In this document: one piece after another, positions 2,875 to 42,276 of the stretch
How positions within the stretch are numbered: position 1 is the first letter of the stretch
Layout of the letters: every line of letters starts with the position of its first letter
Origin: an uncultured Candidatus Saccharibacteria bacterium
GTDB taxonomy: Bacteria; Patescibacteriota; Minisyncoccia; Phycocordibacterales; UBA9973
Length of the DNA: 63,188 bases
Assembly: GCA_964496425.1 (NCBI GenBank)
Contig: CAZBZO010000006.1
Coordinates: 1,190 to 64,377 of the forward strand
Direction: 5' to 3'
Notes under the pieces: model-generated
Databases searched by the model: none
What the model saw: only the letters and a program-made list of their open reading frames with translations
What the model was told of the DNA's origin: nothing
Program-made: the position numbers and the translations under genes

Positions 2875-4620
2875 CTACTTCATTAATACCTGGAGCTCCT
2901 TCAATGAAACTGTTGGCAATAGTTTTTCAGGGAAAGTAATCTCTCCGATGTTCACTGCGCCATCTTTTAGCTTCACAAGCCGGATGTCATTTTTGACAAA
3001 CATCTCCAAGAGCTTCTCCGCTGACCAGACAACTTCACCCGATGTTTTAGCTGCAAGAGCTAAACTTTTTATCAGGTTTATCATCTGTTTCGGCACCTCT
3101 GGTCCAAATAGGATTCCCAGGAGTTCCACATCCTGTTCAATGGACCGGCCTGACGACTGGACCAATTTTTCAGTTGAGTTCTCATCCGATTTTTTAGATC
3201 TAATGGACTCAGGCCTTACATCATCAATACTTATTGACTTATCCCCGAGCCTTGAGTCTATACCGATAAATCTTAGATCCTCCTGTAGTAAAACAATTTT
3301 TTCCTGCATTTTATTTGACGAAGCGAAGGTAACATAAAACCACCATGGTTTTTTCGAAGTATTTTGCCTGCGATGGATTCTGAGTTTATGTTTTTTTATT
3401 AACTCAATTATCACAGCACGGCACTCCTTGGGATTTTTTTCTCCTAAAGCAGGAGGTTCCAACTCAATAGTTGATTTTATTTTTCTCGTCTTGTAGGGTC
3501 TTCTCACAGTTCCAGTTACTGCTGAAAATTCTTCCAGAGGATTGAGGCTAACAGGCAAAACGACAGATGAATTCTTTTTTTCTTTACCTGATTTTCCTTT
3601 TGGAAGACGCACAGCCACGTATCCCGTATCAATTAATACTTTCATCACCTCTTCGGTATTTTTTGACTTGGCAATAACATAAGCAAATTTACTGCGAGGA
3701 GGAGTTAGGATATCATAAAGTTTGATTCCTTTTTTTGTGAGAATACTTCGTACCCGTTCATTCAAGTACCCTGGTGTTCCAATTTCTATAGCATCGTAAT
3801 AGCCCTTGGTTTTCTGCACGACCTGATAATTCAGGATCACCGCATCAGCACTGATGAATGAGAGGAAGAAGCCGCATCTTTCAAACTTTTCCATTGCGTC
3901 TCTACGATCTTTAATTGCTGTAGTTGTGTTGGTAAAATGAATTACAGCGCGCATCTTTCCATTAGTGAAATCTACTCTGGTATGAGCGGTTATTTCTTTC
4001 ACTATGGCCTTAATTGCTTTCTCGCGAATCAGCAAACTATCGGATGAGTGTGAAAAATGGATGGCTGACAGATCGATCGAAATCTTTCTCTCTGAGTGTT
4101 CGATCATTACGGCATCTCCATAGTAAATCACTAAACGTTCCATTTCAGCTAAAAGTTGTTTCCCCTGAGCGGTGTCATCACAAACGAACACAAATAATCC
4201 ACTCTGTGTGCTTTCTTCAACCGAAGTTTTTGGAATGTTAAAGCATAAAATAAAATCCTCCCAAAATGACTTCTCTGCAGCGGCATCAAATTGCTTTTCA
4301 TCATTATTTAGCAAAGAAACGGTGGATTCTGAAATTTCGTCTGGCAATTTCATACAACTAATTTTTACTATCGTTCTATCTCCTTTGGCTGTCTCAGCCT
4401 CACATTCTTTTGGTAGATTTTCACATACCGAAGATGCTATCCCGGCATTAAAAAATTTTAATTTAAAAACTACCGGGTCTTTCGCCAACGGCAATCGTTG
4501 GTATTCTTTAGGGAGATGAGGACTTGCTCCTATTGCTGTAAGAGTAAATTTATCCTCAATAAATTTACATACGGAGTTTATTATCACTGTACGTTTGTCT
4601 AAGGAAAGCTTTTTGCTCAT
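2875..4620 (-). CDS. large hypothetical protein (581 aa from ATG 4620)
   Basis: Long AT-rich ORF with its own consensus promoter and terminator; no family recognised. Confidence 0.75.
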   Translation of the reverse strand: MSKKLSLDKRTVIINSVCKFIEDKFTLTAIGASPHLPKEYQRLPLAKDPVVFKLKFFNAGIASSVCENLPKECEAETAKGDRTIVKISCMKLPDEISESTVSLLNNDEKQFDAAAEKSFWEDFILCFNIPKTSVEESTQSGLFVFVCDDTAQGKQLLAEMERLVIYYGDAVMIEHSERKISIDLSAIHFSHSSDSLLIREKAIKAIVKEITAHTRVDFTNGKMRAVIHFTNTTTAIKDRRDAMEKFERCGFFLSFISADAVILNYQVVQKTKGYYDAIEIGTPGYLNERVRSILTKKGIKLYDILTPPRSKFAYVIAKSKNTEEVMKVLIDTGYVAVRLPKGKSGKEKKNSSVVLPVSLNPLEEFSAVTGTVRRPYKTRKIKSTIELEPPALGEKNPKECRAVIIELIKKHKLRIHRRQNTSKKPWWFYVTFASSNKMQEKIVLLQEDLRFIGIDSRLGDKSISIDDVRPESIRSKKSDENSTEKLVQSSGRSIEQDVELLGILFGPEVPKQMINLIKSLALAAKTSGEVVWSAEKLLEMFVKNDIRLVKLKDGAVNIGEITFPEKLLPTVSLKELQVLMK

Positions 4621-4657
4621 GAGTTTAAGTTTTAAAAGGGTTAGAAAAATTTTGTTG

Positions 4658-4686
4658 ATTCTACATGGAAATCTTGAGTATGTCAA
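4658..4686 (-). promoter_or_regulatory. sigma70-type promoter TTGACA-N17-TAGAAT
   Basis: Near-consensus hexamers with 17-nt spacer, 37 nt upstream of ATG 4620. Confidence 0.75.
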
Positions 4687-4717
4687 GATAGTAAGATGGA
4701 GGATCAAACTTCAATAT

Positions 4718-6183: not shown

Positions 6184-6687
6184 ATGGATAGCGCTCATAC
6201 TCAAAATACCTTCCTTGAAAGCTTCAGTGCTTACAACGACGCAATTTTCCGATATTGCTATTTTCAGACGTCCAACCGCGAAATAGCCCTTGATCTCACT
6301 CAGGATACCTTTATGAGAGCATGGGAATATTTACAAACAGGAAAAACAGTCGGCAATATGCGTGCGTTTCTGTATCGGATCGCCACCAATCTGATTATCG
6401 ACTATCGCCGAAAACGAAAAGCGACCTCGCTCGATACCATGATTGAAAGCGGATACGATACCAGTACGACCGGAAGAAAAGAAGTAGAGAGCATCATTGA
6501 GGGTCAAGAAATACTGAAGCTCGTTGACCAGATTGATGAAAAATATCGTGATGTAATCATTATGAGATACATCGACGATATGAGTATCAAAGAAATTGCG
6601 CTGGCTATGGGTGAACTTGAAAATACGATTTCAGTGCGGATACATCGAGGACTTGAGAAATTAAAGAAACTCTATATCACAGAATAA
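6184..6687 (+). CDS. ECF RNA polymerase sigma-70 factor
   Basis: Region 2 (ALDLTQDTFMRAW, AFLYRIATNLIIDYRR) and region 4 (MSIKEIA...TISVRIHRG). Confidence 0.92.
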   Translation: MDSAHTQNTFLESFSAYNDAIFRYCYFQTSNREIALDLTQDTFMRAWEYLQTGKTVGNMRAFLYRIATNLIIDYRRKRKATSLDTMIESGYDTSTTGRKEVESIIEGQEILKLVDQIDEKYRDVIIMRYIDDMSIKEIALAMGELENTISVRIHRGLEKLKKLYITE

Positions 6688-6695
6688 AATAAAGT

Positions 6696-8336
6696 ATGGA
6701 AAAATTATACGACATATTTAAAAAAGGTACCTCTCTCAAGATGACACTTGAGGAAAAAGCGGCCATGCGGACGCGTATTTTGGCGTACATGAACAAAGCA
6801 ACAACGCCAAGTCCATATCACGGTGTTATATCTCCATACACCCCTCGATTTTCATTTAGATTTATGCATGTAGCCAAAGTCATGGCTTTGGTGCTTATCG
6901 TCGTTCTCGTCGGTGGAGAAACTTTGGCATATGCTTCACAAGACGCTCTCCCGGGCGATGGTTTTTTATACGCGGTAAAAGTAAACGTCGCTGAGGAGAT
7001 CACGGCCACCTTCAAAGTAAGTCACGAAGAAAAAATCGCCTGGATCAGCGAACGTATGGATCGCCGCATCAACGAAGTAAAAGTACTGAAAGAAGAGAAC
7101 AACCTCACGCCTGAAAATGAAAAGATCGTGACCAGCGCATTTATGGATCACACCAAAGCACTCGACGAAGATCTTGCAAAACTTGAAGCCAGCGGCAAAA
7201 GCGAAGTTGTCGTAGCGATTGCTGACGACTTAATTCCAAAGCTTGATACATACGAAAAAGTTATTAACGGAGATGATGTCACACTGGCACTTGCTCCTTC
7301 TGTGACTCTGCCTGATGAAGACACCGACACAAAAGCTCTTTCGGTTGATAGTACTGTTTCCGAAAATATTGAAAGTACATTAGAAAATACATCTTTGTCT
7401 ACCATTGATGACACTGAGAATATCGGAGGTGTTGATACTGATGGAATACAAGATGAAGACATGGTGCCACTTGCTAAAACCCTAGAAGCAGATGAGGACA
7501 CAGTGGGTTCAGAAGTCAGCGCACCCTCAGAACTTGGAGATTTGATACGGATGCAGCGCTCCGTCCTCATAGCAAAAAAAGAAGTAGCTCTGGAAAGTAT
7601 AGACGAAGAACAGCAAATTCTTGACGATGCCAAAGCAGATACTGAAAGTGAAACATCTGAACTTATGGGAATGATTGAAGGCCATGTAACAATGGCTGGA
7701 GCAACTTTCGCATGTCTCTCGCCAGAAAATGCTCTGCCTGGCATCTCGCTCACCTGTACAAGCATTGACCCAAATCTTTTTCTCGGCCGCACCCTCACGG
7801 TTTATCAAAATGATGAAATCATAACAACGATAGATTTATCGAAGACGGGACCCAACTTTTCCCTTCCCCTCCCAGTCGGTACATACGAGATAGTCTACAG
7901 CGGCGTACCGACTGACGGCATCCAAAAAGAGAAACAAACGATAACTGTCGAAGCTGACAGTAGCGCGACATATACAAATCTCATCAAACAATCAAAAGCC
8001 ACCTCAGCAACCAATGTTGCAACCGTGTCCGGCACTGTAACAGTCGAGTTTTCATGCCCCGTGTCTGATGTATGCGTAGAGCCAGTTAAAAAACCAGGTA
8101 TCTCAATACTCATCTCAGATCCTGCTACCGCTAAAGTAATCAAAACAGTATCAGTAAAAACAGACGGGACGTTTACTACCACCATGCCAGAAGGCACGTA
8201 TACTCTATCCCTTGTTGAAATAGTTCCGTCTTCCAAAGCCAGTGCTGCTCATAGATTTACAAGCATTCCTGCGACGCTCTCACTCCACGCTTACGAAACA
8301 CAGACTATTTCATTTGCAGTGTCGATAGTCCAATAG
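6696..8336 (+). CDS. putative anti-sigma factor: TM helix, DUF5667, acidic linker, two C-terminal Ig/carboxypeptidase-regulatory-like beta domains
   Basis: ALPGDGFLYAVKVNVAEEI signature after a TM helix; 8 nt downstream of the ECF sigma. Confidence 0.7.
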   Translation: MEKLYDIFKKGTSLKMTLEEKAAMRTRILAYMNKATTPSPYHGVISPYTPRFSFRFMHVAKVMALVLIVVLVGGETLAYASQDALPGDGFLYAVKVNVAEEITATFKVSHEEKIAWISERMDRRINEVKVLKEENNLTPENEKIVTSAFMDHTKALDEDLAKLEASGKSEVVVAIADDLIPKLDTYEKVINGDDVTLALAPSVTLPDEDTDTKALSVDSTVSENIESTLENTSLSTIDDTENIGGVDTDGIQDEDMVPLAKTLEADEDTVGSEVSAPSELGDLIRMQRSVLIAKKEVALESIDEEQQILDDAKADTESETSELMGMIEGHVTMAGATFACLSPENALPGISLTCTSIDPNLFLGRTLTVYQNDEIITTIDLSKTGPNFSLPLPVGTYEIVYSGVPTDGIQKEKQTITVEADSSATYTNLIKQSKATSATNVATVSGTVTVEFSCPVSDVCVEPVKKPGISILISDPATAKVIKTVSVKTDGTFTTTMPEGTYTLSLVEIVPSSKASAAHRFTSIPATLSLHAYETQTISFAVSIVQ

Positions 8337-8351
8337 CTACAACTAAAAGTT

Positions 8352-8388
8352 AAATGTAAAATCCCCATTTGATGGGGATTTTACATTT
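8352..8388. terminator. bidirectional terminator
   Basis: 17-bp perfect inverted repeat aaatgtaaaatccccat/atggggattttacattt between convergent genes. Confidence 0.8.
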
Positions 8389-10873
8389 TCAAAATATCAT
8401 TGAGCACGTCAGCAGGTACTTCTTTGCGTTTTTTAGATGGTGTCGGTGGTGATGCTTCATCGTTTGCTTTTACAGAAGCAGCTTCAGCTTCTTTAGCGCG
8501 CATCTGTTCCTGTTTTTCTTTGGCGCGAATAGCTTCCTCCGCCTCTTCTTTGGCAGCCACCTCTTTAGCTTTAGCTTCCAGTACTCTTTTTTTCTCTTCT
8601 TCGAGCTCGACTTGTTTCTGCTCTGCTTCTTTTCGTGCTTTCTCGATGTTGTTTTTTTCTTCAAGCATTTTTCGCTCTTCTTCAAGGCGGGCAAGTTTTT
8701 GTTTTGCTTCCGCGATCGCCGCGGCTTCTGCAGCCTGACGCTCGGCCAATTCTTTTTCTTCTTGTTCTTTTTTTATTTTCTGATCTTCACCCACTTCTTT
8801 CTCTGGTACCGATGCTCGTGGATGGTCATTCCCTCCCATCGCTTTAGCAATGACATCTTTGAGAGCTGATACATGTTCGGTAGAAGCATCTTTGGTAGAA
8901 AGTGAGACTGGAGTAGATGATGGTTTCTTTAGATTGGAAAGTGACACGGCTTGCGCAGTCGGTTTTACGGAAATGACCTCTTCGTCTTTGGCTCCTCTGG
9001 CAGTAGGCACTGCACTGTGGCGCGAATAATCAGATGGTGTTTTTCCACCAGAGAGTGCTTCAGCGAGCACACTCTTGAGCCCTGCTAAGTCTGGAGCTTG
9101 GCGTTCTTTTGCAACAAATTTTTGTACTACCGGAGGCGTCTTCGGCGCAAATGAAGGAGTAGAAGATGGACTTTTGGAAACTTGAGAGGCGGGGCGGGGC
9201 GCTATTTCTGGTTGTGGTCGGCGAGCGGTAGTCGCGGTAGTCTCTGTGGTAGATGCTTTTGTTGCATCAAATTCAATACCGAGGTTTGCAAGCGGTGCGA
9301 ATGATTTTGATTCAGGGCCTCGCTTGGCTACGACTTTGAGCGGCTGAAGCTCACCGGCTTTTATTTTGGCGATACAGTCGCGACAATAGACGGGCCTGCC
9401 TGGAGCCGGCTCAAATGGTACCGTTGTTTCTTTGTTGCAGATCGAACACAATGCACGAAACTTCCCTTCAGCATTGAAGCCAGTGGATGCACCCGCGCCA
9501 GGACTTGAAGAAGAATTGGGTGTCGAGGTGGCATGCGAACCGTCGCCTGAACCCACCATCATGCCACTCCAGTCAGCAATTTCTCGCTCTACAATTTCTC
9601 TTGGCCGAGTATAGAGGCTGCGAGATGATTGGATGATCTCCTCTGCGACACTTGCTCCGCCCTCTATGACAAATGGCGCCATAGTGACCGCTGAAAACGG
9701 CCGAGAAGTTATACCGTCTACCATCAATTTCAGATAAATGTGGTAGTTGGGAATATTAACAACGTCTTGCGGAGTAAACTCAGGTTCAAATTCTTTTTCC
9801 AAAAATTCAGCATCAGCGGCGCCGACTCGAAAGACGATCATCGTACCCACGTTGCCGAAAACTGCATCACGCACACTATCTGAGCCGTTGACCGAAAGTT
9901 GGCCGATGTATTGGTGAGCAATGGTCAAGTCGAGGCGATACTTACGAGCTTCGGAGAGGATCGAAGCAAATGAATCCGTTACAAAGTTTTGAAATTCGTC
10001 GACATAGAGAAAAAAGTCTTTACGATCTTTCTCCGGGATACGGACACGCTCCATGGCTGCCAGCTGAAGCTTGGTGATCAGCATGCCACCCAAAAGTGCA
10101 GAGTTGTCTTCACCCACTCGACCCTTTGAGACGTTGACGAGGAAAATTTTTCCGGAGTTCATGACCTCAAAGAGATCAATCGTGGACTTGGCTTGTCCGA
10201 CGACGTTGCGGATGATGGAGGTCGAAAGAAATTGACCGACTTTGTTTTGAATTGGAGCGATCGCTTCATTACGAAACTGATCACGCCAGGCTTCATATTC
10301 ATGGATCCAAAAAGCTTTGACGACCGGGTCTTTCAAATTGTTGATGATCTGCTGACGGAAGTCCTTGTCGACTAAGAGACGCGGAATACCGAGAAGCGTC
10401 GAGCCCGGGGTGTCGAGAAGCGCTAAAATAGCGTTGTTCAAGATGTATTCCATTCGAGCACTCCAGGCATTGGCCCAAATCTTGGTGAAAATACCCATGA
10501 GACCTGATGCTACAAGGTGCTTATATTTTGGATCGTCGAGCTGAAGTACGTTGAAGCCAACGTGATAGTCGGTATCAGCCGGGTTGAAGTAAATAACATC
10601 TTTTATGCGGTGCGGTGGAATAGCCTCAAGGATCGATTCTACAAGCTCGCCGTGCGGATCTACCACACAGACGCCTTCCCCGGTGTAAATATTTTGAATG
10701 ACCATGTTGGTGAGCATGGCTGACTTACCGGTACCGGATTTACCAAGCACATAGACGTGCTGGCGTCGGTCTTTGCGCTTGATGCCAAAGACCTGATCTT
10801 TATTGCGAAAATTGGTTTTCGCAAGATATGTAATATCGTCGTTAAAATTGACGCCTTCGGGTAGAACTAGCAT
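8381..10873 (-). CDS. VirD4/TraD (HerA-FtsK)-like ATPase with CxxC-x17-CxxC zinc ribbon and E/K/A-rich coiled-coil tail
   Basis: Walker A GKSGTGKS, Walker B LYVDEFQN, SEARKY, AHQY; CSIC-x17-CRDC at 9374-9448. Confidence 0.85.
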   Translation of the reverse strand: MLVLPEGVNFNDDITYLAKTNFRNKDQVFGIKRKDRRQHVYVLGKSGTGKSAMLTNMVIQNIYTGEGVCVVDPHGELVESILEAIPPHRIKDVIYFNPADTDYHVGFNVLQLDDPKYKHLVASGLMGIFTKIWANAWSARMEYILNNAILALLDTPGSTLLGIPRLLVDKDFRQQIINNLKDPVVKAFWIHEYEAWRDQFRNEAIAPIQNKVGQFLSTSIIRNVVGQAKSTIDLFEVMNSGKIFLVNVSKGRVGEDNSALLGGMLITKLQLAAMERVRIPEKDRKDFFLYVDEFQNFVTDSFASILSEARKYRLDLTIAHQYIGQLSVNGSDSVRDAVFGNVGTMIVFRVGAADAEFLEKEFEPEFTPQDVVNIPNYHIYLKLMVDGITSRPFSAVTMAPFVIEGGASVAEEIIQSSRSLYTRPREIVEREIADWSGMMVGSGDGSHATSTPNSSSSPGAGASTGFNAEGKFRALCSICNKETTVPFEPAPGRPVYCRDCIAKIKAGELQPLKVVAKRGPESKSFAPLANLGIEFDATKASTTETTATTARRPQPEIAPRPASQVSKSPSSTPSFAPKTPPVVQKFVAKERQAPDLAGLKSVLAEALSGGKTPSDYSRHSAVPTARGAKDEEVISVKPTAQAVSLSNLKKPSSTPVSLSTKDASTEHVSALKDVIAKAMGGNDHPRASVPEKEVGEDQKIKKEQEEKELAERQAAEAAAIAEAKQKLARLEEERKMLEEKNNIEKARKEAEQKQVELEEEKKRVLEAKAKEVAAKEEAEEAIRAKEKQEQMRAKEAEAASVKANDEASPPTPSKKRKEVPADVLNDILKM

Positions 10874-10910
10874 AAAAAATGTTAAATACCATTAGTGGTA
10901 CTTGGGACTA

Positions 10911-12614
10911 TTATAGCACTTCTTTTTGATAACAAGCTTCGCAATATACTATTTCTGAGCGATCGGGAGCAAAAGCCGTCTCAAATGTATTAAGGCATAT
11001 ATTTTCGTGACCATGATCAGGGATGTCGCACATGCACGAGCGATGCCAGAGCTTTATCGGATTCTCCATTTTGAGACGTCTACTATTTCGACAGAAAAAG
11101 CACTCACGCGGAAGTGGCGCAGATATTCTCTGATGGAATTGAAGCTCTTCAGGAACAATTTTATAATTTCGCTCACACGTAATACAATCGAGAATCTCTT
11201 TAAGAATTTCTTCCGTTGTATTGCCAATCGCATCAGGCATGTTTTCAGCAAGCATTGTTTCTTTACCAGTCGTATGTTGAATTTCATCAAACCATGTATA
11301 CCCATTTCTCAGAGCTTCTTCTTTACTGAGTGGAAAATGTTCTTGCGCCATAGTTTCGTTATACCCAAAATATGAAAACTTGGCTGGAAAAAATTCTCCC
11401 CATTCCCTTGTCGCTCTCATATGCTCAATAATTTTTGGCACAAGCGCTTCATATTCTTCTTTCGTATATTCTTTATTTAGGATTAAATATTTTCCATGTC
11501 GTATTGCCGAACATCCAAAAAGATACTTCGATGAATGACAATTTTCCACATATGTGAGTTCCTGACTTTTTAGTGAATAAATTGAAAAGAACACTCGATA
11601 ATCATGGTCAGGCGTGAGTCCTTCATAACATTGGTCTGTCATGCCCGCCGGAGTGAGGTCGTAACTATTTTTTATTTCATTTCCACGGAAAAGAAAACGC
11701 GAATCTTCACAATCCCGAAGGAAACAGCTGTCTTTCGCATTTTTACATCCCCACAAACCGTCTCCTGTTGAATCGACACAGTTACGAATATTCGCAAACC
11801 GGCGAGGCTGTGTGGCCAAAAATTTGAAAAATTCTTTTTTCGCATACTCTGCTCCTGAATACGTATCGAGGCGGTATTCTTTCATAATTTTTTGATACTC
11901 CTCCTTTGTGAATTGTTTATTAAAAATGCAATAACTTTTCTGCCGCAGATTTACGCACATACAACAATTTGAACAACCCTTACAATCATATACAAAGACA
12001 CAGTCGGTAAGACCAGTGGAATAGTATGCATTTCGACAGTTATAACAATGCTCAAGAAATACTGAGTCGTAAATGAGTTCAGAATAATTAAAGATATCTA
12101 CGGTGTCTGTACAATAGCTCGTTTCGGGACCTGCATTATTGTAAAAATACATGCAATTCTCTGCGTACCACGTCATAGCACCCATATACATGTTCTTGGT
12201 AAACGTGGCATTGGTTGTGTATTCAGCATTTATACTTCCCACCCCGTCATCGTTAAACATTGCTGGCTGTGGAATAACATTTTGAAGATCGCGAAATTGT
12301 TCGAAAAACGGACGAGAGAAATCAAAATCGCGGCCATAGGTATGCGGATCCCAGGCATCGCTCCACCAGCATTTATTGCAATACACTACAAGTTTTTTCT
12401 TTGGCGAATGCAAAGAAATTATTTTTCTATTGCAAAGATCACATGTCCGGTTGTAAAACGAAAGGTCATTTCTCCATGCAAGACGGCGTTGGAGCCGGCA
12501 GGTCGAGCAAAATGTGGGTGCTGGCACACCAATCTTCTCATAAAACGAAAAATCATCGGGTTCGATGGTGAATTTTTGTGTGCAGTTTTGACAAATTTTT
12601 GTTTCTGGTTGCAT
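10911..12614 (-). CDS. Cys-rich multi-zinc-ribbon protein, paralog 1
   Basis: CQNC...PTFCSTCRLQRR, CxxC-x17-CxxC, WWSDAWDP, central CxxCxxC repeats, YGEFFP-like motif, C-terminal YCEACY. Confidence 0.85.
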   Translation of the reverse strand: MQPETKICQNCTQKFTIEPDDFSFYEKIGVPAPTFCSTCRLQRRLAWRNDLSFYNRTCDLCNRKIISLHSPKKKLVVYCNKCWWSDAWDPHTYGRDFDFSRPFFEQFRDLQNVIPQPAMFNDDGVGSINAEYTTNATFTKNMYMGAMTWYAENCMYFYNNAGPETSYCTDTVDIFNYSELIYDSVFLEHCYNCRNAYYSTGLTDCVFVYDCKGCSNCCMCVNLRQKSYCIFNKQFTKEEYQKIMKEYRLDTYSGAEYAKKEFFKFLATQPRRFANIRNCVDSTGDGLWGCKNAKDSCFLRDCEDSRFLFRGNEIKNSYDLTPAGMTDQCYEGLTPDHDYRVFFSIYSLKSQELTYVENCHSSKYLFGCSAIRHGKYLILNKEYTKEEYEALVPKIIEHMRATREWGEFFPAKFSYFGYNETMAQEHFPLSKEEALRNGYTWFDEIQHTTGKETMLAENMPDAIGNTTEEILKEILDCITCERNYKIVPEELQFHQRISAPLPRECFFCRNSRRLKMENPIKLWHRSCMCDIPDHGHENICLNTFETAFAPDRSEIVYCEACYQKEVL

Positions 12615-12619
12615 TTTTT

Positions 12620-12643
12620 CTACTAACTATTTCCTACTTACTA
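12620..12643. repeat. heptamer-period repeat, family A (inverted copy lacking one unit)
   Basis: Reverse complement tagtaagtagg-aaatagttagtag equals 17515-17545 minus tagtagt. Confidence 0.65.
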
Positions 12644-12645
12644 CC

Positions 12646-14340
12646 CTACAGCACTTCTCGTTGATAACATGCTTCACAATATATCACCTCTGGTCGCTCA
12701 GGCGCATACGGCGTGCGGATAGCCTTTTTACAAAAATCACAGTTTCGATCAAAAAGCCGAGTGGGTAAAAGTAGCTTTAATCTTTCAGCATGCCGCTCCT
12801 GTGGACACAAGCGTGGTAGAGGCAAACCCGCTTGACGATAAAACGCGAGCTCAGAGGGAATGATTCTATAGGCCTTGTCTGACACTTTACACTTAAGAAT
12901 CTTTTGTAAAATATCGTCACCAACGTCTTGTATGTCATCAGGGATCACATAATCAGAAAACTCGTAGTGTGTATCTGATACATACTCACTCCACGTGAAT
13001 CCTTGATCGATTACCTCTTCTTTTGTTAGTGGAAAGTTTTCAGGAGCAGTCGTTTCATTGTATCCAAATGGAGAAAGTTCCGAAGGAAAGAACTCACCGT
13101 ATGTGTATACTTTTCCTTTTTTGTCTACATACGGCATGTCGTTCATATGAGCTTTTATTTTCGGTAAAAGTGTCAAGTATTCATCTTTGGAATATCGGCG
13201 GTTTAAAATGACATATTCGCCACCACGAATCGAAACACAACCGAAACAATTGCTTGAACTCGTACTGACCGCACAATATTCCAGATTTTGCACCGTTACT
13301 TTTTTAAAAGGATCATTCGAAAGACACAGAAGTAAGAACTTCGAATTATACCCTCCACCACTACTTGAACATTCATACACGAGCTCAGCCGCTCCAAAGC
13401 ACGAACAATCGTATCCTTCCTTCACCCATCCGGTAATAAACATATGTTTGCAATTTTCAACCTTGGTTGACTCCCAGACATCATGAGCATTTTTTGATTC
13501 CGACACTGCATTACCAGTAACATCAACTGATTTAAATATTGTGTTTTCGCGATGTGGAGACTGTATCCATATCGGCATTGATTGCTCTTTCCACCACGAC
13601 GCTTCGGTATGTGAAGATACAGGATGTTCCTTTAGAAATTGCTCATATGATTCTTTGCTTTTTTGTTCATTAAAAATACAATACTGCTTGTTTCGGAGTC
13701 CTGCGCAACCAATAATATCCTTGCAGTTTCGACAATCATACGAAAAGAATGTATCAAGCGAATCATGACATTCAAGAGAATAGTGCGTATTATAATCGCG
13801 CTCGCAATGAACATTGTTACTACAGCGATCAGAATTGAGTATCCAGTAGTTATCAAAACAATTTTTGCTTTGCACGCCATATGTGCAGTAAGCTGAATCT
13901 TCGTTGTATAAACCACCAATATTTAAGTAGCAATTTTTACTGTCGGTTTCCTGATTAACCCATTCACTGTTGATACAGTTGGAATTGAAAATAGAAATAT
14001 GAGGAACGGTATAAAAAAGTTCCTTCCACTGATCAAAAAATGGTCGGGAAAAGTCATAAGCCCTGCCGTATGAATACGGATCCCATTTGTCGCTCCACCA
14101 GCAATTTGAGCAATACATTGGATACGGTTTGTCCGGTGAAATCCGGGAAACTACGCTCGTGTGGCACATATCGCAATCCCTCTTATAAAAATTACGCTCA
14201 TTACGAAATGAAAGTCTACGCTGAAATCTACAATCCGGACAAAATGTCGGCGGCGGAACACTCATCTTTTCGTAAAACGAAAAATCATCTGACTCGATGG
14301 TAAAATCTTTTTTGCAGTTTTGGCAGGTTTTTATTTCCAT
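12646..14340 (-). CDS. Cys-rich multi-zinc-ribbon protein, paralog 2
   Basis: Same architecture as paralog 1; start overlaps the stop of paralog 3 (TAATG). Confidence 0.85.
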   Translation of the reverse strand: MEIKTCQNCKKDFTIESDDFSFYEKMSVPPPTFCPDCRFQRRLSFRNERNFYKRDCDMCHTSVVSRISPDKPYPMYCSNCWWSDKWDPYSYGRAYDFSRPFFDQWKELFYTVPHISIFNSNCINSEWVNQETDSKNCYLNIGGLYNEDSAYCTYGVQSKNCFDNYWILNSDRCSNNVHCERDYNTHYSLECHDSLDTFFSYDCRNCKDIIGCAGLRNKQYCIFNEQKSKESYEQFLKEHPVSSHTEASWWKEQSMPIWIQSPHRENTIFKSVDVTGNAVSESKNAHDVWESTKVENCKHMFITGWVKEGYDCSCFGAAELVYECSSSGGGYNSKFLLLCLSNDPFKKVTVQNLEYCAVSTSSSNCFGCVSIRGGEYVILNRRYSKDEYLTLLPKIKAHMNDMPYVDKKGKVYTYGEFFPSELSPFGYNETTAPENFPLTKEEVIDQGFTWSEYVSDTHYEFSDYVIPDDIQDVGDDILQKILKCKVSDKAYRIIPSELAFYRQAGLPLPRLCPQERHAERLKLLLPTRLFDRNCDFCKKAIRTPYAPERPEVIYCEACYQREVL

Positions 14341-15992
14341 TAGCTAATATTGCTTTTATAGCAATCTTCACAAGATACATTCTCATACCCCCACGATCGT
14401 GGATAGTATCCAACAATATTTTTTGAACAATAAAAACATGAATAGTTTTCTCCTTGCGTGGGTGCAAGTAGCCGCATTCGACTCTTTGTACGTACATCAA
14501 AATGCACTCGTGGCAGGGCTATATTCTTTCTCTTAAGAAATGCGAGTTCGTCTGGCGCTATATTAAAACGCCACCCTGTTACAGGGCAAATAAGTGCCTG
14601 TTTTGAAATACTTCCTGAGATATCATGTATGCTATCAGGTAAATCATTCGTCGCGATCCCCTCTATATGATCTTCTCTGGAATCGTCCCAATATCCTCCT
14701 TGAGAGAGCACAAATTCCCTTGAGACTTCAGGAAAATAAATTTGTGCAGTTGTTAAATTATACGGACACAGTCCCATATTGTATGGGAGAAATTGTCCGT
14801 ATTCATTCCTGGCTCGCATATCGGAAATTATTGTTTCGCGAAGACTTTCATATTCTTCTTTTGTGTATTGTTTATTGAGAATGCAATATTTCTTCTTTCG
14901 TAGCCCTACACATCCAAAACAATATTCAACCTCTGCGCATTGGTCGAGGTACTCCGAATACCGACCATCAGACCACGAAGAATACTTAAGCTGATATCCA
15001 GCTGTTGCACAGCTATTTCTTCCCGAGAGCTCGATTTGCCAACAGCCTAACATATCAATACAGTCTGTGGCAGTACGGCCACGTAGGCAGTCGTAACAAT
15101 TTTCCGAATCTTCAAAGCTAAAAACATTATGACAATTATTACAGTTTGCAAGATAGGTACCTTCCGAATTATACGTATTCAAAGTAAAATTTTGTCGGTG
15201 AACAAAATCTTTTTTTAAAATCTCTTCGTATCGTTCTTTTAGTTTTTCCAAACTTTTGTTTGAACTTAGATCATATTCCTTGAGTTTTTCTACATATTCC
15301 TCTTTGGAATATTGCTTGTTCTCGATACAGTATTGCTTCCCGCGCAAATTCCAACACATGGTGCAATTGGTGCAATTACGGCAGTCATACAAAAATTGGG
15401 AATCCATACAATCCCGACAGTTACGCGAAAACAAAACATTAAAAGAATTGAAGGTATATGTACATTCGTAACAATTATCAAGGTTAAACACATGCGAAAT
15501 ATCAATCGAATCTTTTGTATCAAACGCACGATATCCATAGGAAAGATTCTCGCTACGAGCGATGGAACGAGAAAGATAACAATTTTTACATTCCCATGCA
15601 TCATCACACCAGTCAGAATTTGTATTTTGTGCACCTTGCTGATGTGGGCGCGGCACCTTTTCTTGTAGCTCTTTCAATTGGTCAAAGAAAGAGCGACTGG
15701 GGTCATACGTCAAACCAAAACTCATTGGGTCCCAAGCATCAGAAAACCACTCACTTGAAGTATAGATCGGATATCGGGCACTTGCCGGAAGTATAGTAAT
15801 GAGATTTTCTCCAGATAAATCAGACGTTCCCTTCCGAAACTTCCCAAATGGCCAAAAGGCGAAATAGTGCTTCATCCGACAGGAAAAACACTGGGTCGGA
15901 AGTGGAATCGCTACCTTCTCATACATAGAAAGCTCGTCAGGAGAAATTGTGAAACGTGTTTGGCAATGCTCGCAAACTTTTTGAGTATCCAT
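14340..15992 (-). CDS. Cys-rich multi-zinc-ribbon protein, paralog 3
   Basis: Same architecture, but second zinc site altered (SDLS...TSSE); TGG-TAGTCT 6 nt upstream. Confidence 0.85.
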   Translation of the reverse strand: MDTQKVCEHCQTRFTISPDELSMYEKVAIPLPTQCFSCRMKHYFAFWPFGKFRKGTSDLSGENLITILPASARYPIYTSSEWFSDAWDPMSFGLTYDPSRSFFDQLKELQEKVPRPHQQGAQNTNSDWCDDAWECKNCYLSRSIARSENLSYGYRAFDTKDSIDISHVFNLDNCYECTYTFNSFNVLFSRNCRDCMDSQFLYDCRNCTNCTMCWNLRGKQYCIENKQYSKEEYVEKLKEYDLSSNKSLEKLKERYEEILKKDFVHRQNFTLNTYNSEGTYLANCNNCHNVFSFEDSENCYDCLRGRTATDCIDMLGCWQIELSGRNSCATAGYQLKYSSWSDGRYSEYLDQCAEVEYCFGCVGLRKKKYCILNKQYTKEEYESLRETIISDMRARNEYGQFLPYNMGLCPYNLTTAQIYFPEVSREFVLSQGGYWDDSREDHIEGIATNDLPDSIHDISGSISKQALICPVTGWRFNIAPDELAFLKRKNIALPRVHFDVRTKSRMRLLAPTQGENYSCFYCSKNIVGYYPRSWGYENVSCEDCYKSNIS

Positions 15993-16023
15993 CTTTAGAG
16001 ACTACCATTTCTCTAATTAAATA

Positions 16024-17511
16024 CTAGATAAGGGGCTCGGCGGTCGCTTCAGCTTTGGCGGGTGCCGCTTCTTCCTCTATTTCTTCCCCACTAGCGTCAT
16101 CTTTGCGGGCTTTACGAGTAATAGCTGCTTTTTCTTGTGCGCTACGAATGATAGAGGATTCTTCTTCTTCAATGAGTTTCTTGGCAGCATCAGCGGTGAT
16201 GGCATATTTGCGGCGCGAAGCAGCAAGAATTTCTGCTTTGTATGACGGATGCGTGGCTGGCAAGACTTTCAAGGTCTCGGCAGAAAACGGATCGTAGGAT
16301 TCTCCATCGATTGTCATTTTGATATAGAACTCCGCAATACCTAAGTTGATCATATCTTTGATATCGAAGATCGGCGCAAATTCTGGCTTGAGCTCAACAG
16401 CGTCCTCGCCGCCCACACGGAAGCAAATAAGTGAGGCCACATTACCACGAACTGCTCGCTGAATCTTTTGCGACAGTTGTCCCAGGTACTGGTTGGCGAC
16501 AATAAGATTGAGGCCGTATTTACGGGCCTCAGAGAGAATGTTTTCAAATGTATCAGTGACCACGTTTTGAAACTCGTCCACGTAGAGATAAAAGTCTTGG
16601 CGGTCTTTAGGATCCATTTTTGCGCGCGCCATACCCGCCTGTTTGATTTTGGTGAGAAACATGGAACCAAAGAAGCTCGAGTTTTCTTCACCAATTTTTC
16701 CCTTAGAGAGATTGATGAGAATAATTTTTTGACTATTCATCAAGGCTTCAATATCGACTTTGTTTTCTTTTTGACCAAAAATATTTCGAAGCATCGGGTC
16801 GGAGAGAAACTGCCCGAGCTTGTTGACGAGCGGAATGATAGCGTCGGTGTCAAATTTTTCTGACCAGTCGGCAAATTCAATCGCCCAGAAGCGCTTGACC
16901 ATATCGTCTTCGATATACTCCACCACTTTCTGACGGTAGTTACGATCTGTGAGCATCGAGATCATACCGCGCATCGTGGCATGCGGATAGTCGAGGAGTG
17001 CGAGAGTCGTGAAACGAAAGACGTGCTCCAAGCGTGGCGTCCAGTTGGCCCCAAATTGTTTCTCCAACACTTCGATCAAACCCTGCGTGAGTTGGTGCTT
17101 GAAAGTGAGGTCGATATTTTGCAGTGGATTGAAAGAAGCTGGATAGTCGATATCGGACGGATCAATAATACACACATCCTCGATGCGATCTTCTGGCACG
17201 AAATTTAAAATATCATCGATAAATTCTCCGTGCGGATCGATCACACAGAGGCCATGGCCATAGGCAATATCTTGGCGCACCATCAGCTCTTGGAGTTTGG
17301 ATTTGCCGACACCAGACTTGCCGACGATGTACATATGACGTCTACGGTCAACACGCTTAATGCCGAAGATAAATTTCTTTTCTTCAAGTGCCGCTACATA
17401 GTTGGTGCGGCCAATAAAAACGATGTCAGCAGGATCCCCTTGCCCATACATCGGCAGCTCCGGTGGCGGTGGCGCATATTTGATTATTTGGATTTTATTG
17501 GCGCGTGGCAT
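16024..17511 (-). CDS. VirD4/TraD (HerA-FtsK)-like ATPase, second paralog
   Basis: Walker A GKSGVGKS, LYVDEFQN, SEARKY, ANQY; collinear with the ATPase core of 8381..10873. Confidence 0.85.
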   Translation of the reverse strand: MPRANKIQIIKYAPPPPELPMYGQGDPADIVFIGRTNYVAALEEKKFIFGIKRVDRRRHMYIVGKSGVGKSKLQELMVRQDIAYGHGLCVIDPHGEFIDDILNFVPEDRIEDVCIIDPSDIDYPASFNPLQNIDLTFKHQLTQGLIEVLEKQFGANWTPRLEHVFRFTTLALLDYPHATMRGMISMLTDRNYRQKVVEYIEDDMVKRFWAIEFADWSEKFDTDAIIPLVNKLGQFLSDPMLRNIFGQKENKVDIEALMNSQKIILINLSKGKIGEENSSFFGSMFLTKIKQAGMARAKMDPKDRQDFYLYVDEFQNVVTDTFENILSEARKYGLNLIVANQYLGQLSQKIQRAVRGNVASLICFRVGGEDAVELKPEFAPIFDIKDMINLGIAEFYIKMTIDGESYDPFSAETLKVLPATHPSYKAEILAASRRKYAITADAAKKLIEEEESSIIRSAQEKAAITRKARKDDASGEEIEEEAAPAKAEATAEPLI

Positions 17512-17587: not shown

Positions 17588-18010
17588 TTATTTGAGAAAA
17601 CTGCCGCGAAGCGTTTTCATGGCCAAATAGGTAGCAAAGAAAAAAAGAAGCGACAATACTTGGTTGACCCAAAAGAAAGCAATATTTTTTACATCTTCTG
17701 GAGGCAAATGCAAATATGCAAAGACTGCGAAGTATTCAAATACTGCAAACCCTATCACCGGAACAATAGTGTTTAGAGCAAGCACCCAGCGCTGCTCGGG
17801 ATTCATCAAGCCGCCGGCAACAGCGAGTAAAATGATGATAAAAAGGACAGTCGGGATCGGCAATGGTATCAAGGAAGCAAAAAAGGGAAACCCGATTAGC
17901 ATAATGACGCCGGTGAGAATAAAAATCCCTCTGATCGTATCTCCATAATAATGAGCAAGACTTTTGTCGGTAATATTTTTAGTCGCTTGCTCGGTGACTT
18001 GGTCGTTCAT
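17588..18010 (-). CDS. four-TM membrane protein of unknown function
   Basis: Four hydrophobic helices; ATG 18010 lies 6 nt after TGG-TATACT. Confidence 0.75.
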   Translation of the reverse strand: MNDQVTEQATKNITDKSLAHYYGDTIRGIFILTGVIMLIGFPFFASLIPLPIPTVLFIIILLAVAGGLMNPEQRWVLALNTIVPVIGFAVFEYFAVFAYLHLPPEDVKNIAFFWVNQVLSLLFFFATYLAMKTLRGSFLK

Positions 18011-18074
18011 GGCTACAGTATACCACTTTGAGGGCACCAATAAAAAGCACAGCTGGTAATATTTTTTACTCCGT

Positions 18075-32229: not shown

Positions 32230-33900
32230 TCAGTCTAGATCAATGACCGTAATACTGTATGGCTTGAGTGTCATACCATTTTCCAAAAGCACGGTTCCTT
32301 TTTCGAGTTTGGCTGAAACTGGAGCGATAGCACCTTGCGTGGTCTTAAAATGAGAATATGCAGGAGAACTCCCGATCGATCCGTAAGGTTTTTCACTCCA
32401 TAGCGAAGTAGAATTCTTTGCTCCACTTTGAAGCTCGCCGTTCACACTTACACTTTTGATCGCCCGCTCTGGGCCATTATTGTAAATGTAGAGTCTCATC
32501 GTATCGCTTGTGACGGTGATCGCATCCAGTCCGTCAATCGTACTTCCGAGTTGGGTTTTTATAAAAAGCGGATTTGCGGAGGCAAACACTGGCTTTAGCA
32601 TTTCATACGCCACTCCTGGTACCCGTTTTACAAATGACCGCGAGCCATCAGTGCCAATAAAACTCGGATCGATCTCAAATAGTCCATCGGCTTGCTCGTA
32701 CGGGCTGACAGCGTTTTCATTGACGAGAAAAATCGCGGAATTAACGAAATTGTTGTGCGTGCTGTTGAATTTAAGAATTTCAAACAAGAAATTCCAAATC
32801 ATAACACCGTGAAGCATGGTATGGGCACCATAACCACCGCGCTGAAGACTGAGTCCATACTGGCCAAGATGCATTTTGATGCTCGGCATTTCTTTGGCAT
32901 AGGTGGAAAGTCTAGGCAACAAGGTGTCGCGAAGACTCGCCGAGAGCTGCGGACGAATTTCAGCAAAGTATTCATCTATCGAGGTCTTACTCGAGCGTCC
33001 GTCGAGCCAAGCGTACTGACTAAATTCTGCCACTCCATGATCGCGGGCCCAGGCATACACATCAGCATTGTTCCAACTCGGCGTCGAATGGTCCGCCATA
33101 TTCACCACCATAGGTGGGAGCGGTGAATAGTGGCTTTTTAAATACGCATAAAATTCATCGAGCTTGGCGATATATTGGTCTGATGTCAGGGCGCCACCGA
33201 TACCAGTCGATACTTCTTGACCAAAACGAAGCTTGTATGATCCGATGCCATGGGATTTGATCGAATCAATAAAGACTCCCATTTCTTCTGGTGTACCATG
33301 AATAATATTGGCAGTAAACACAAAGGTTTGATCGTGATTTTCTACATACTTGGCAGTTGCATCCCAAAAATCCACGCCGGTGTCATTAATCTTTTTTTGT
33401 AAATTGTATGCCCCTGAAGTGCTGTTGGTGTAATGAAAAATTTCATCGAGATTGGCACCCATGCCGACGACCGGTGCGCCAGTAGCTTTCGCCGGCCAAC
33501 CAGAAAGTGCGATCGGATGAATCCAGCGATCTTCGGCGCCTGCTGTGTAGGCCCCGCTAGTAAACCCAACCTCTTGGATCATCGTATTCCAAAGTGGATT
33601 GGCACTAAAATCATTAAAATCTTTTCCAATATTATTGAGCGCCACACCAAAGAGATCTTTGGCGATTGGTGTCTCTCCTGCAGTAATGATGTTGATGGTC
33701 ACGCCACCTGAAGTATCCATGCTCGGTGTAAGTATGGTATCGCTTCCGCCCGTGAGGTCAGTACGTGAATTGGTGTCTCCTGTACGGCTTGATCGTTCAC
33801 TTCCAGTACGAGTGGCAAATTGATACACAAAAAATCCTATTACAAGGACTGCGATGATAGCCAGAGCGAGGAGTATGTATTTTTTAGAAATAGGTGGCAT
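32230..33900 (-). CDS. membrane-anchored protein, possible glycoside-hydrolase (TIM barrel plus beta sandwich) fold
   Basis: N-terminal TM helix, S/T/G/D-rich linker, RFGQE and HLGQY at positions typical of clan GH-A catalytic motifs, C-terminal LKPYSITVI. Confidence 0.45.
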   Translation of the reverse strand: MPPISKKYILLALAIIAVLVIGFFVYQFATRTGSERSSRTGDTNSRTDLTGGSDTILTPSMDTSGGVTINIITAGETPIAKDLFGVALNNIGKDFNDFSANPLWNTMIQEVGFTSGAYTAGAEDRWIHPIALSGWPAKATGAPVVGMGANLDEIFHYTNSTSGAYNLQKKINDTGVDFWDATAKYVENHDQTFVFTANIIHGTPEEMGVFIDSIKSHGIGSYKLRFGQEVSTGIGGALTSDQYIAKLDEFYAYLKSHYSPLPPMVVNMADHSTPSWNNADVYAWARDHGVAEFSQYAWLDGRSSKTSIDEYFAEIRPQLSASLRDTLLPRLSTYAKEMPSIKMHLGQYGLSLQRGGYGAHTMLHGVMIWNFLFEILKFNSTHNNFVNSAIFLVNENAVSPYEQADGLFEIDPSFIGTDGSRSFVKRVPGVAYEMLKPVFASANPLFIKTQLGSTIDGLDAITVTSDTMRLYIYNNGPERAIKSVSVNGELQSGAKNSTSLWSEKPYGSIGSSPAYSHFKTTQGAIAPVSAKLEKGTVLLENGMTLKPYSITVIDLD

Positions 33901-37091: not shown

Positions 37092-37109
37092 ACAATAATA
37101 AAATAATTT

Positions 37110-37331
37110 ATGAAAATATCAAAAGTATTACATATCGTTAGTGTCGCAGTTGGTTTTATTGGGGTCATCTCATTTCTAGCATCAGTGCTGGGCGGGGCTG
37201 ATAACAGCGTGTTTGGGGTTACAAAAGTAGATGCATTGCTTTGTAGCGGTATTCTAATTCTTATAGCAACTTGGACACAAATCGGAGCCATCCATCACAT
37301 AATGCTTGAGAAAACAGGAGAAATCGTATAA
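37110..37331 (+). CDS. small two-TM membrane protein in copper operon
   Basis: Two hydrophobic helices, operonic spacing. Confidence 0.7.
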   Translation: MKISKVLHIVSVAVGFIGVISFLASVLGGADNSVFGVTKVDALLCSGILILIATWTQIGAIHHIMLEKTGEIV

Positions 37332-37343
37332 GCATTCATAACT

Positions 37344-38351
37344 ATGAAAACATACACATTCAATGTCTCAGGAACTCATTGTGCATCGTGCAAAATCTTA
37401 ATTGAAGATATTTTGAACGAGCAGGATTTTATTAAAAAATCAAAAGTGGATTTGAAGAAGGAAACCGTAGATATTGAAACTGATAGCAATGTTGATGCGA
37501 GTGAGATGGCTGGTATCCTAACTAATAAAATACAATCTCACGGCTACGTTCTTTCAACGGAGAAAATAGCAGCCCAAAAAGAAAGCGATGGGGTTATATG
37601 GAAAGCTCTGCCTATTGGTTTAGCTTTTCTGATACTCTTTTTCCTTTTGCAAAAATCTGGCATCCTTAACATTGGGCTTGGGAGCAAAACAACTCCCACG
37701 ACCAGTTTTATTATTGGGCTTATTGCTTCCGTTTCTTCTTGTCTCGCCATTGTGGGTGGACTTGTTCTATCTCTTTCCGCAAAAGTTTCAGAGGATAATG
37801 TGAGCGACAAAAAGAACTTTATACTTTTTCACATTGGGCGACTTTTCGGCTTTGCAGTGTTAGGAGGTGTATTAGGAGCCTTAGGACAAGCTATTGGTAT
37901 CAATTTTACTTTTACTGCGATATTAGGAATTATTGCATCATTAGTAATGTTGCTCTTAGGCCTTAGTTTAACAGGAGTATTTACTAAAAATCACATAACC
38001 CTACCTTCTAACATCTTCAACTTCTTCAGGAAAATAGAACACAAAACTCTTACTCCAATTTTGATTGGATTTGGAACATTCTTTCTACCGTGTGGATTTA
38101 CTCAAGCAATGCAGGTTGCATCTCTTTCTAGCGGGTCATTCCTTTCAGGTATGCTTATTATGTTTGCTTTTGCTCTAGGCACTTTACCAATGCTGGCACT
38201 TCTATCATTTGGTTCGGCATCATTTGCTCACGGAAGGCACGCTCCTTTATTTTTCAAATCTGCGGGAGTAGTAGTTATTGGGCTTGGTATGTTTGCATTA
38301 CTCTCGGGTCTAGCAGGTTTAGGTATTATCAATCCTTTATTTAATATATAA
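37344..38351 (+). CDS. HMA domain plus DsbD_2/TauE-like membrane protein
   Basis: GTHCASC, SSCLAIVGG, FHIGRL, FLPCGF, FALGT. Confidence 0.85.
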   Translation: MKTYTFNVSGTHCASCKILIEDILNEQDFIKKSKVDLKKETVDIETDSNVDASEMAGILTNKIQSHGYVLSTEKIAAQKESDGVIWKALPIGLAFLILFFLLQKSGILNIGLGSKTTPTTSFIIGLIASVSSCLAIVGGLVLSLSAKVSEDNVSDKKNFILFHIGRLFGFAVLGGVLGALGQAIGINFTFTAILGIIASLVMLLLGLSLTGVFTKNHITLPSNIFNFFRKIEHKTLTPILIGFGTFFLPCGFTQAMQVASLSSGSFLSGMLIMFAFALGTLPMLALLSFGSASFAHGRHAPLFFKSAGVVVIGLGMFALLSGLAGLGIINPLFNI

Positions 38352-38358
38352 TTACTTA

Positions 38359-38745: not shown

Positions 38746-38923
38746 TTTAATATTAAGCATTTATTTCTTCAATAAACCTAGACACCTTAATAGCGGATTG
38801 CAACATGGGGAAAGTATAGCAAGTATTAGTATACCCAATTTGCAAAGAGGATAATCATTTATTGCCACCTATAGCAATTTCTCCTCCCTTATAATTTTTG
38901 CAAGTTCTATTTACACTTCATGA

Positions 38924-39232: not shown

Positions 39233-39355
39233 TACATGCTCAGATAGGCAAAGACTTAGCAACAAATGATGGCTATGGTCTGCAATTACGATTTCTATTT
39301 ACTAATAACTAACTATAGAATAAAAAGAAGATATCTGTTATTGTTTAAAATATAA

Positions 39356-42049: not shown

Positions 42050-42276
42050 GACTATCTTTAAAAATCATTATTTCGAAGGCATATCTGCTTTCGAACCCTC
42101 TATATTAACAATTGTTCAAACGACTGACTATTGCAATGTATAATCGCTATGCTCTGTAATTACGATTATTGTCACAAATAACAGGTTCGAGTCCTACTGG
42201 GTCATAAAACCTTTTTTGTGAAAAATAGAGAACAAAAAAAGCCTTGATACTAAAGGCTTTGTTATTACTACCATAG

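Follow-up and report, generated by a model that had tools for sequence, protein, structure and literature searches.

What do the many VirD4-type coupling ATPases of the Patescibacteria work with, when so few of them are encoded near virB4? A survey from 2025 counted 5,713 VirD4-type homologues in 2,918 of 3,035 Patescibacteria genomes, about two each, of which only 148 lie near virB4, and its authors write that exaptation of these homologues 'cannot be ruled out' (PMC12102498). Cysteine-rich or zinc-rich neighbours of the VirD4-type genes are not mentioned in that survey. The question is raised in concrete form by a stretch of 63,188 nucleotides (nt) from an uncultured Candidatus Saccharibacteria bacterium (GenBank assembly GCA_964496425.1, contig CAZBZO010000006.1; the whole stretch is called the window below), in which three cysteine-rich proteins, here called PAR1, PAR2 and PAR3, are encoded between two such ATPases, A and B. 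An initial annotation, made from the sequence alone, had placed five co-oriented genes at 8381-17511, with three cysteine-rich paralogs of 550-567 amino acids (aa) between two ATPases, and the open reading frames (ORFs) confirm this. They form a tight operon on the minus strand, in the order A, PAR1, PAR2, PAR3, B:

16024-17511, minus strand: ATPase A, 495 aa, a soluble VirD4/TrwB-like P-loop ATPase
14340-15992, minus strand: PAR1, 550 aa with 33 cysteines, a zinc-finger/solenoid protein
12646-14340, minus strand: PAR2, 564 aa with 33 cysteines
10911-12614, minus strand: PAR3, 567 aa with 35 cysteines, all four terminal zinc sites intact
8381-10873, minus strand: ATPase B, 830 aa, a soluble VirD4/TrwB-like ATPase with a long C-terminal extension
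8352-8388, minus strand: hairpin resembling an intrinsic terminator, with a 17-bp stem and a T-run, overlapping the stop codon of ATPase B

The spacers between the genes, in operon order, are 31, -1, 31 and 37 nt. The negative value reflects a TAATG at 14340, where the stop codon of PAR1 overlaps the start codon of PAR2 by 1 nt. This is the single such overlap in the operon; it had been noticed before but assigned to paralogs 3 and 2, whereas it joins the 550-aa and 564-aa genes, i.e. paralogs 1 and 2. Judging from its sequence, the hairpin is the end of the operon. The ATPases and the PAR proteins probably act in one system.

A lack of adjacency in other genomes had been named beforehand as evidence against a common system. 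Judged by gene order, the link between ATPases and PAR proteins is conserved in both directions and across classes. The forward set consists of 80 genome loci that were selected by PAR peptide patterns alone, and holds 288 PAR genes in co-oriented arrays of 1-11. Here, no neighbour of the PAR genes is nearly as common as the ATPase family. It is present in 29 of the 80 loci, compared with 2.8-4.6 expected if there are two ATPase genes per genome of 0.6-1 Mb (P <= 3e-16), and 167 ATPase-PAR pairs are co-oriented while 2 are opposed. The reverse set consists of 80 metagenome loci selected by ATPase A alone. PAR genes are found in 57 of these, and all pairs (168/168) are co-oriented. Among the 25 loci with at least 4 kb of sequence on both sides, 23 contain PAR genes (22 of them within two genes of the ATPase), and 15 contain a second ATPase. 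The gene orders seen include A-PAR(n)-B, B-PAR(n)-A and A-B. In related genomes, orthologues of PAR1 with 54-70% identity are found directly 3' of ATPase A. In Peribacteria and Abawacabacteria up to 7-8 PAR genes adjoin, and mostly precede, a single ATPase of 745-758 aa that is about 50% identical to A. The orphan ATPases occur as a conserved A/B pair, and the PAR proteins are their most consistent genomic partner.

The individual genes are conserved as well. The best identity of a PAR protein has a median of 42% within its own array, versus 57% to another locus, and for 89% of the PAR proteins a copy from another genome is more similar than any neighbour in the array; by these identities, the paralogs are old and individually conserved. 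Compared with their copies in the two closest genomes (L001 and L002), ATPase A is 81-82% identical, glutamate dehydrogenase (GDH) 82-83%, GMP synthase (GuaA) 68% and PAR1 70%. By this measure, the conservation of ATPase A is at housekeeping level, equal to that of GDH. A 150-aa multi-helix membrane protein that is encoded 76 nt upstream of A (17588-18040, minus strand) was considered as a further conserved component and rejected, as it recurs only in L001 and L002, where its copies are 48-49% identical. In the longest PAR arrays (L043, L047, L050 and L025), 9-11 co-oriented copies are found within 21 kb; one of these arrays is on a 1.3-Mb Peribacteria chromosome (OZ246396.1). Several arrays in Peribacteria are interrupted by TrmB-like regulators on the opposite strand.

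What kind of proteins are the PAR proteins? PAR2 and PAR3 are 33-34% identical to PAR1. The initial annotation had described terminal zinc ribbons, a WxSDxWDP motif and a central CxxCxxC repeat region in all three, and each of these descriptions holds in part. The terminal zinc ribbons are indeed shared, but they are partly decayed: the second N-terminal finger of PAR1 has lost its cysteines, and the third fingers of PAR1 and PAR2 are degenerate. The W.SD.WDP motif is invariant among the three paralogs, but its strict form is present in only 76 of 254 members of the family. A central run of C-x2-C-x2-C-x2-C is found in PAR1 and PAR3, but PAR2 retains only C-x2-C-x5-C. An iron-sulfur reading of this run was set aside because only three of its cysteines are conserved among the paralogs of the window. 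In the 254 PAR proteins, the cysteines (27-43 per protein) are spaced with a period of 3, giving about 12.6 CxxC motifs each. The architecture is that of an internal duplication, with two zinc fingers, two CxxC solenoids, an acidic linker and two zinc fingers. In PAR2 the parts are as follows:

14089-14340, minus strand: N1 and N2 fingers, aa 1-84
13555-14007, minus strand: solenoid M1, aa 112-262
13135-13557, minus strand: solenoid M2, aa 262-402
acidic linker, aa 402-478, minus strand
12649-12909, minus strand: C1 and C2 fingers, aa 478-564

When the PAR2 profile is compared with itself using hhalign, N1 (aa 1-50) matches C1 (478-528; 98%, E 2.5e-13), N2 (50-84) matches C2 (526-564; 97%, E 8e-11), and M1 (112-262) matches M2 (262-402; 99.6%, E 1.7e-24). 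The whole proteins are acidic, with an isoelectric point (pI) of 5.5-5.7, and the strongly acidic linker stands ahead of a basic C1 module (pI 10.1 in PAR2). No signal peptide and no membrane segment were found in the PAR proteins. The AlphaFold2 (AF2) model of PAR2 has a predicted local distance difference test score (pLDDT) of 83.4 and a predicted template modelling score (pTM) of 0.83. A Foldseek search with this model against the PDB gave nothing significant, the best hits being left-handed beta-helix enzymes at E 0.5, and against BFVD only small zinc-ribbon pieces were found (best E 0.03). A search of the PDB with the PAR profile likewise gave nothing usable.

The family is large. PAR2 has more than 7,194 homologues; the named ones are nearly all called 'hypothetical protein', and the organisms that are named are all given as Patescibacteria or 'bacterium'. 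In a database of 1.84 billion cluster representatives, the PAR profile finds 5,026 clusters at E <= 1e-3, of which 2,206 reach E <= 1e-30; at 50% identity the family thus amounts to some 5,000 clusters. All of the best 150 matches cover nearly the full length, at 528-612 aa. Homologues of 623-703 aa were considered as variants with an extra domain, and rejected: they only have N-terminal extensions that resemble mis-called starts. No family in Pfam, NCBIfam or PADLOC covers the PAR proteins, and only a weak zf_Tbcl_2/zf_Tbcl signal is seen at their ends; out of 56 PAR2-type sequences, 41 match zf_Tbcl_2 and 16 match zf_Tbcl. In the literature searched, including full texts and the 2019 paper on protein families of the candidate phyla radiation (CPR), there is no description of the PAR family or of its association with the ATPases. 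PAR appears to be a very large, unnamed and undescribed protein family that merits a Pfam entry. The ATPases are a known kind of protein in a new form; for the PAR family and its link to them there appears to be no earlier description.

That the two ATPases are VirD4-like, as the initial annotation had it, is borne out by both sequence and fold. A and B are 44% identical over 413 aa. ATPase A scores above the Pfam gathering cut-offs for DUF87, T4SS-DNA_transf, TrwB_AAD_bind and TraG-D_C, and ATPase B for TrwB_AAD_bind and TraG-D_C. The Walker motifs are intact in both, with GKSGVGKS (at aa 64) and FYLYVDE (at aa 307) as Walker A and B in ATPase A, and GKSGTGKS and FFLYVDE in ATPase B. None of the curated NCBIfam models for TraD, the VirD4 CD1115 family and CedD is passed: the best scores are 55.0, 45.8 and 35.1 bits, where the cut-offs are 366, 250 and 600, the last being that of CedD. 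These matches are mostly partial and centred around the P-loop, and only the CD1115 match of ATPase A spans most of the model. Homologues of ATPase A are very numerous, and the best 120 clusters are 78-87% identical; in the source databases they are only called 'DUF87 domain-containing', 'type IV secretion system DNA-binding domain-containing' or 'HerA-like'. In the AF2 model of ATPase A (pLDDT 70, pTM 0.74), the P-loop core is interrupted by a helical block (aa 135-259). In a Foldseek search the top 12 matches are TrwB (1e9r), Cag-beta (8dol) and DotL (6sz9), with E-values from 4e-8 to 7e-7, ahead of HerA and VirB4. A PDB search with the sequence of ATPase A gave nothing usable.

The P-loop core of the FtsK/HerA superfamily with an inserted helical domain is what A and B share with the type IV coupling proteins, such as TrwB of R388, VirD4, TraD and Cag-beta. 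In other respects they differ. Type IV coupling proteins have an N-terminal transmembrane domain, whereas neither A nor B has a transmembrane segment: the highest Kyte-Doolittle mean over 19 residues is 0.85 for A and 1.22 for B, and no window exceeds 1.6. Unlike type IV coupling proteins, they occur as two conserved paralogs per locus, on the chromosome and at housekeeping-level conservation; no relaxase or VirB4 was hit among the ORFs scanned in the window, and no such family recurs in 160 related loci; and ATPase B has a zinc finger in addition. The coupling-protein fold and the Walker motifs are kept in both ATPases, while the membrane domain is absent. They also have C-terminal peptides that are new for coupling proteins. 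The A-type C-terminus is EP(L/M)I-COOH, which follows a variable acidic linker and is found in 76 of 77 complete relatives in the second, ATPase-selected set of loci, and also in the Peribacteria forms; ATPase A of the operon ends in EPLI-COOH. The B-type C-terminus is EVPEDVLxK(I/V)LE in most complete relatives, and in the operon ATPase B has the conserved peptide EVP.DVL..IL, with the final residues …EVPADVLNDILKM. From their sequence conservation, these short peptides are putative docking-type peptides. In ATPase B the extension beyond the ATPase domain measures 385 aa, and the protein is laid out as an ATPase domain (aa 1-445), a zinc finger, a stretch rich in S, T, P and A, a helical tail rich in E and K, and the C-terminal peptide. 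It is worth noting that a public collection holds a version of ATPase A with 475 aa (P0121), which starts 20 codons downstream (region 17452-17511). The longer start is probably real, because the first 20 residues (…IQIIKYAPPPP.LP) are nearly invariant among homologues.

The two kinds of protein also have a domain in common. ATPase B contains one zinc finger of the CxxC-x17-CxxC type:

9365-9460, minus strand: CxxC-x17-CxxC zinc finger of ATPase B, aa 472-503

This finger passes the curated cut-offs of Pfam zf_Tbcl_2 (PF23477; 48.9 bits, cut-off 27) and of TIGR04272 (51.4 bits, cut-off 36). In hhalign comparisons it matches N2 of PAR (95%, E 1.8e-8) and C2 (96%, E 1.1e-9), both of which have a spacing of exactly CxxC-x17-CxxC, while the PAR proteins of the window themselves remain below the zf_Tbcl_2 cut-off, at 15-17 bits. 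By these profile matches, the finger type of ATPase B is homologous to both ends of the PAR proteins (N2 and C2). Helicases, too, can carry CxxC-x17-CxxC fingers, at their C-terminus. Zinc binding is known for small Methanosarcina proteins that contain the domain (PMC12704099). The known examples of zf_Tbcl_2 and zf_Tbcl (PF13451) named here are small stand-alone proteins, whereas a PAR protein has four fingers, arranged around a duplicated CxxC solenoid of 150 aa for which no relative has been described.

In relatives of the operon, further components are found. Protein X has about 450-500 aa with hydrophobic helices at its N-terminus; in about 20 Paceibacteria loci its gene is found some 0.5 kb upstream of A. 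In Peribacteria and Abawacabacteria, the first ~310 aa of the 745-758-aa ATPases are homologous to the soluble part of X, so that X and the ATPase are in effect fused there (X at L151 7915-9333 and L024 4703-6091, fusions at L066 7187-9427 and L042 13465-15708). Protein Y is a small membrane protein of about 170 aa, usually between X and A. Neither X nor Y has a match in Pfam or NCBIfam. CutA1, a divalent-cation tolerance protein, is encoded inside PAR arrays or immediately behind A in 12 of 80 and in 21 of 80 loci (for example L003 11730-12035; also L082-L086, L100, L121, L126, L140, L144, L151 and L157), and in 14 loci an Nramp metal transporter gene and ATPase A are divergently transcribed. 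A metal theme recurs around these cysteine-rich proteins. In a large clade of Paceibacteria the genes are found within a chaperone operon, in the order grpE, PAR(n), a paaX-like gene on the opposite strand, dnaK, B, PAR(n), A, dnaJ. L120 (690-12700) and L135 show this arrangement in full, while L103 and L143 have the same grpE-dnaK-dnaJ frame with no PAR gene between B and A. Of the 80 ATPase-selected loci, 31 have a dnaJ homologue; in those whose gene order was read, it immediately follows A.

How might such a system work? Tentatively, we read the operon as a module specific to Patescibacteria, in which two soluble ATPases derived from coupling proteins work with the PAR proteins. That this system works without a type IV secretion system (T4SS) and acts on proteins is possible, and we propose it with some reserve. 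A protein-directed role without a T4SS is favoured because the membrane domain is absent, the conservation is at housekeeping level and the zinc-finger termini of PAR proteins are folded, and also because the genes are found within dnaK-dnaJ in a sister clade and X is fused to the Peribacteria ATPase. By homology to TrwB, A and B would form hexameric rings; the initial annotation had proposed that the two make up a hetero-oligomer in a translocation machine, which is conceivable. Their tails would recruit PAR proteins in the way that the tails of DotL and TraD recruit adaptors, and ATP hydrolysis would then thread or remodel a polymer, if the analogy holds. The PAR proteins would be client-specific adaptors or co-factors in preference to fast-evolving cargo. 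The closest parallel for such tails is the Dot/Icm system of Legionella, where the coupling ATPase DotL has a long C-terminal extension carrying several adaptors, one of which, DotN, binds zinc. DotL is among the top fold matches of ATPase A, and ATPase B is likewise long-tailed. Unlike A and B, however, DotL is anchored in the membrane and part of a complete secretion system, and the PAR proteins have no sequence relation to any adaptor of the Dot/Icm coupling complex (DotL, DotM, DotN, IcmS/W, LvgA); binding of PAR proteins to the tails is a prediction from analogy. In its most specific form the proposal is a new, T4SS-free machine, in which a hexameric motor of two paralogs cooperates with Hsp70 and, via X, with the membrane, and PAR adaptors with a new fold help to unfold, assemble or move proteins; as a whole, this picture is doubtful.

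Several observations weigh against the proposed module. In 51 of the 80 loci selected by PAR there is no ATPase within about 10 kb, and in some loci A directly adjoins B with no PAR gene; therefore neither partner strictly needs adjacency. The sampled loci are phylogenetically related, so that the counts overstate the number of independent events. The model of ATPase A is only moderately confident at its pLDDT of 70, with TM-scores of 0.4-0.5. The window itself contains none of X, Y, CutA1, Nramp, DnaK, DnaJ or GrpE, and the association with dnaK, seen in a single clade only, may reflect inherited synteny.

Other explanations have to be weighed against the same data. A and B could be the coupling proteins of a chromosomal T4SS of the monoderm type that is encoded elsewhere, with the PAR proteins as cargo to the surface or to host cells. 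Their closest relatives in sequence and fold are true coupling proteins, X and Y as membrane proteins precede ATPase A in some lineages, and CxxC-rich solenoids are reminiscent of extracellular disulfide-rich proteins. Coupling-protein genes are often far from virB4 and next to their own substrates, and VirB4 is present in 2,417 of 3,035 Patescibacteria genomes, or about 80% (PMC12102498). The arrays of 2-11 PAR genes also parallel the tandem arrays of 2-11 divergent VirB2 pilin paralogs in Patescibacteria, which the survey treats in connection with the T4SS (PMC12102498), although VirB2 pilins are small membrane or secreted proteins encoded near virB4, while PAR proteins have about 560 aa and are encoded near orphan coupling ATPases. 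This explanation is nevertheless rather unlikely, given that both A and B are without a transmembrane domain and that no VirB4-like family recurs in the 160 loci. PAR1 is conserved like GMP synthase and the paralogs are old and not fast-diversifying; zinc ribbons are typical of cytoplasmic proteins, and the C-terminus of PAR proteins is a confidently folded zinc finger in the AF2 model and not a disordered signal. In one clade, moreover, the genes lie inside the dnaK operon. In Southlakia the coupling-protein homologue is non-essential, while the genes of the secretion system are essential (PMC12102498).

The fingers of PAR and ATPase B could instead bind DNA or RNA, and the A/B rings could move DNA for uptake, segregation or repair, as is known for TrwB, FtsK, HerA and CedD. 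The kinship of the ATPases to DNA translocases of the HerA/FtsK superfamily points this way, as do the basic C1 module of PAR2 and the presence of this finger type in helicase tails, and there are partial matches to the NCBIfam model of CedD (27-35 bits; E 6e-9 for A and 2e-6 for B). In the archaeal Ced/Ted systems for DNA import, a VirD4-like ATPase (CedD/TedD) has been repurposed away from conjugative export, and some of its orthologues are without a membrane domain (PMC11823120). In our case, however, no Ced/Ted partners are present, the neighbours differ and the CedD cut-off is far from reached. The whole PAR proteins with their linker are acidic, genes for nucleases, recombinases, competence or partition do not recur in the 160 related loci, the recurrent neighbours being chaperone and metal genes, and for this type of finger zinc binding alone has been demonstrated (PMC12704099), all of which makes a nucleic-acid machine quite improbable. 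Least probable of all, and in our view very unlikely, is that there is no mechanistic coupling: the PAR proteins would then buffer zinc or other divalent metals, or act as a redox-sensitive holdase, and be linked to the ATPases by inherited synteny or co-regulation. Most of the sampled PAR genes are indeed not beside an ATPase, CutA1 and Nramp recur around the operon, and the proteins are very rich in cysteine; yet the genes stay adjacent and co-oriented in different classes and in at least four gene orders, the adjacency is enriched far above chance, and ATPase B and PAR share a domain. Two further readings were dropped. For anti-phage defence, PADLOC found no system and no match for PAR, and the ATPases show only generic P-loop similarity to mad8/HerA. 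For a mobile element, a scan of viral contigs found no relative of PAR.

As the initial annotation had concluded, the operon is not a standard conjugation module: its setting is chromosomal and of a housekeeping kind, the ATPases have no membrane anchor, and a scan of 45 main window ORFs, each with 120 aa or more, gave no match to relaxase, VirB4 or pilin families, the other ORFs of that length (mostly overlapping ones) and all shorter ORFs being outside that scan. In the 160 related loci, no VirB4-like, relaxase or other large-protein family recurs beside these genes. The conserved pairing of ATPase and PAR is a lead on the role of the many orphan coupling ATPases of Patescibacteria, and the locus supplies candidate partners for these VirD4-type genes, namely the PAR family, the shared finger, the docking-type tails and the context of Hsp70, X, Y and metal genes. 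The PAR family can take up several percent of a 1-Mb genome. A T4SS-free, Hsp70-linked machine would, if true, add to bacterial proteostasis or transport a branch that had gone unrecognised and that is nearly universal across a major part of the bacterial tree.

The rest of the window is chromosomal Patescibacteria DNA, with genes for GMP synthase, UvrABC, TGT, MreBC, ribosomal protein S2, EF-Ts and aminoacyl-tRNA synthetases. A scan for sigma-70 promoters gave fewer sites than in shuffled sequence, and no promoter is claimed; a search for heat-shock control found no CIRCE element in the window. Downstream of the operon, a gene for a sigma factor of the extracytoplasmic function (ECF) type (6184-6687, plus strand) comes first, and the next gene (6696-8336, plus strand) encodes a protein of 546 aa that matches DUF5667 weakly. 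Both (6184-8336) are transcribed towards ATPase B, with the hairpin at 8352-8388 between the two transcription units. Two ORFs, at 2875-4707 (minus strand, 610 aa) and 32230-33900 (minus strand, 556 aa), are without a Pfam match and do not cluster with the PAR family. One region, 34797-45607, has a low guanine-cytosine (GC) content of 32-38%, compared with about 43% elsewhere. It encodes a copper/heavy-metal P-type ATPase (34797-37091), an HMA-DsbD_2 protein (37344-38351), a cupredoxin-like protein (38359-38745), a ResIII/DEAD helicase of 897 aa (39356-42049) and an AAA_21 ATPase (43820-45607), and may be an acquired island of metal resistance and defence.

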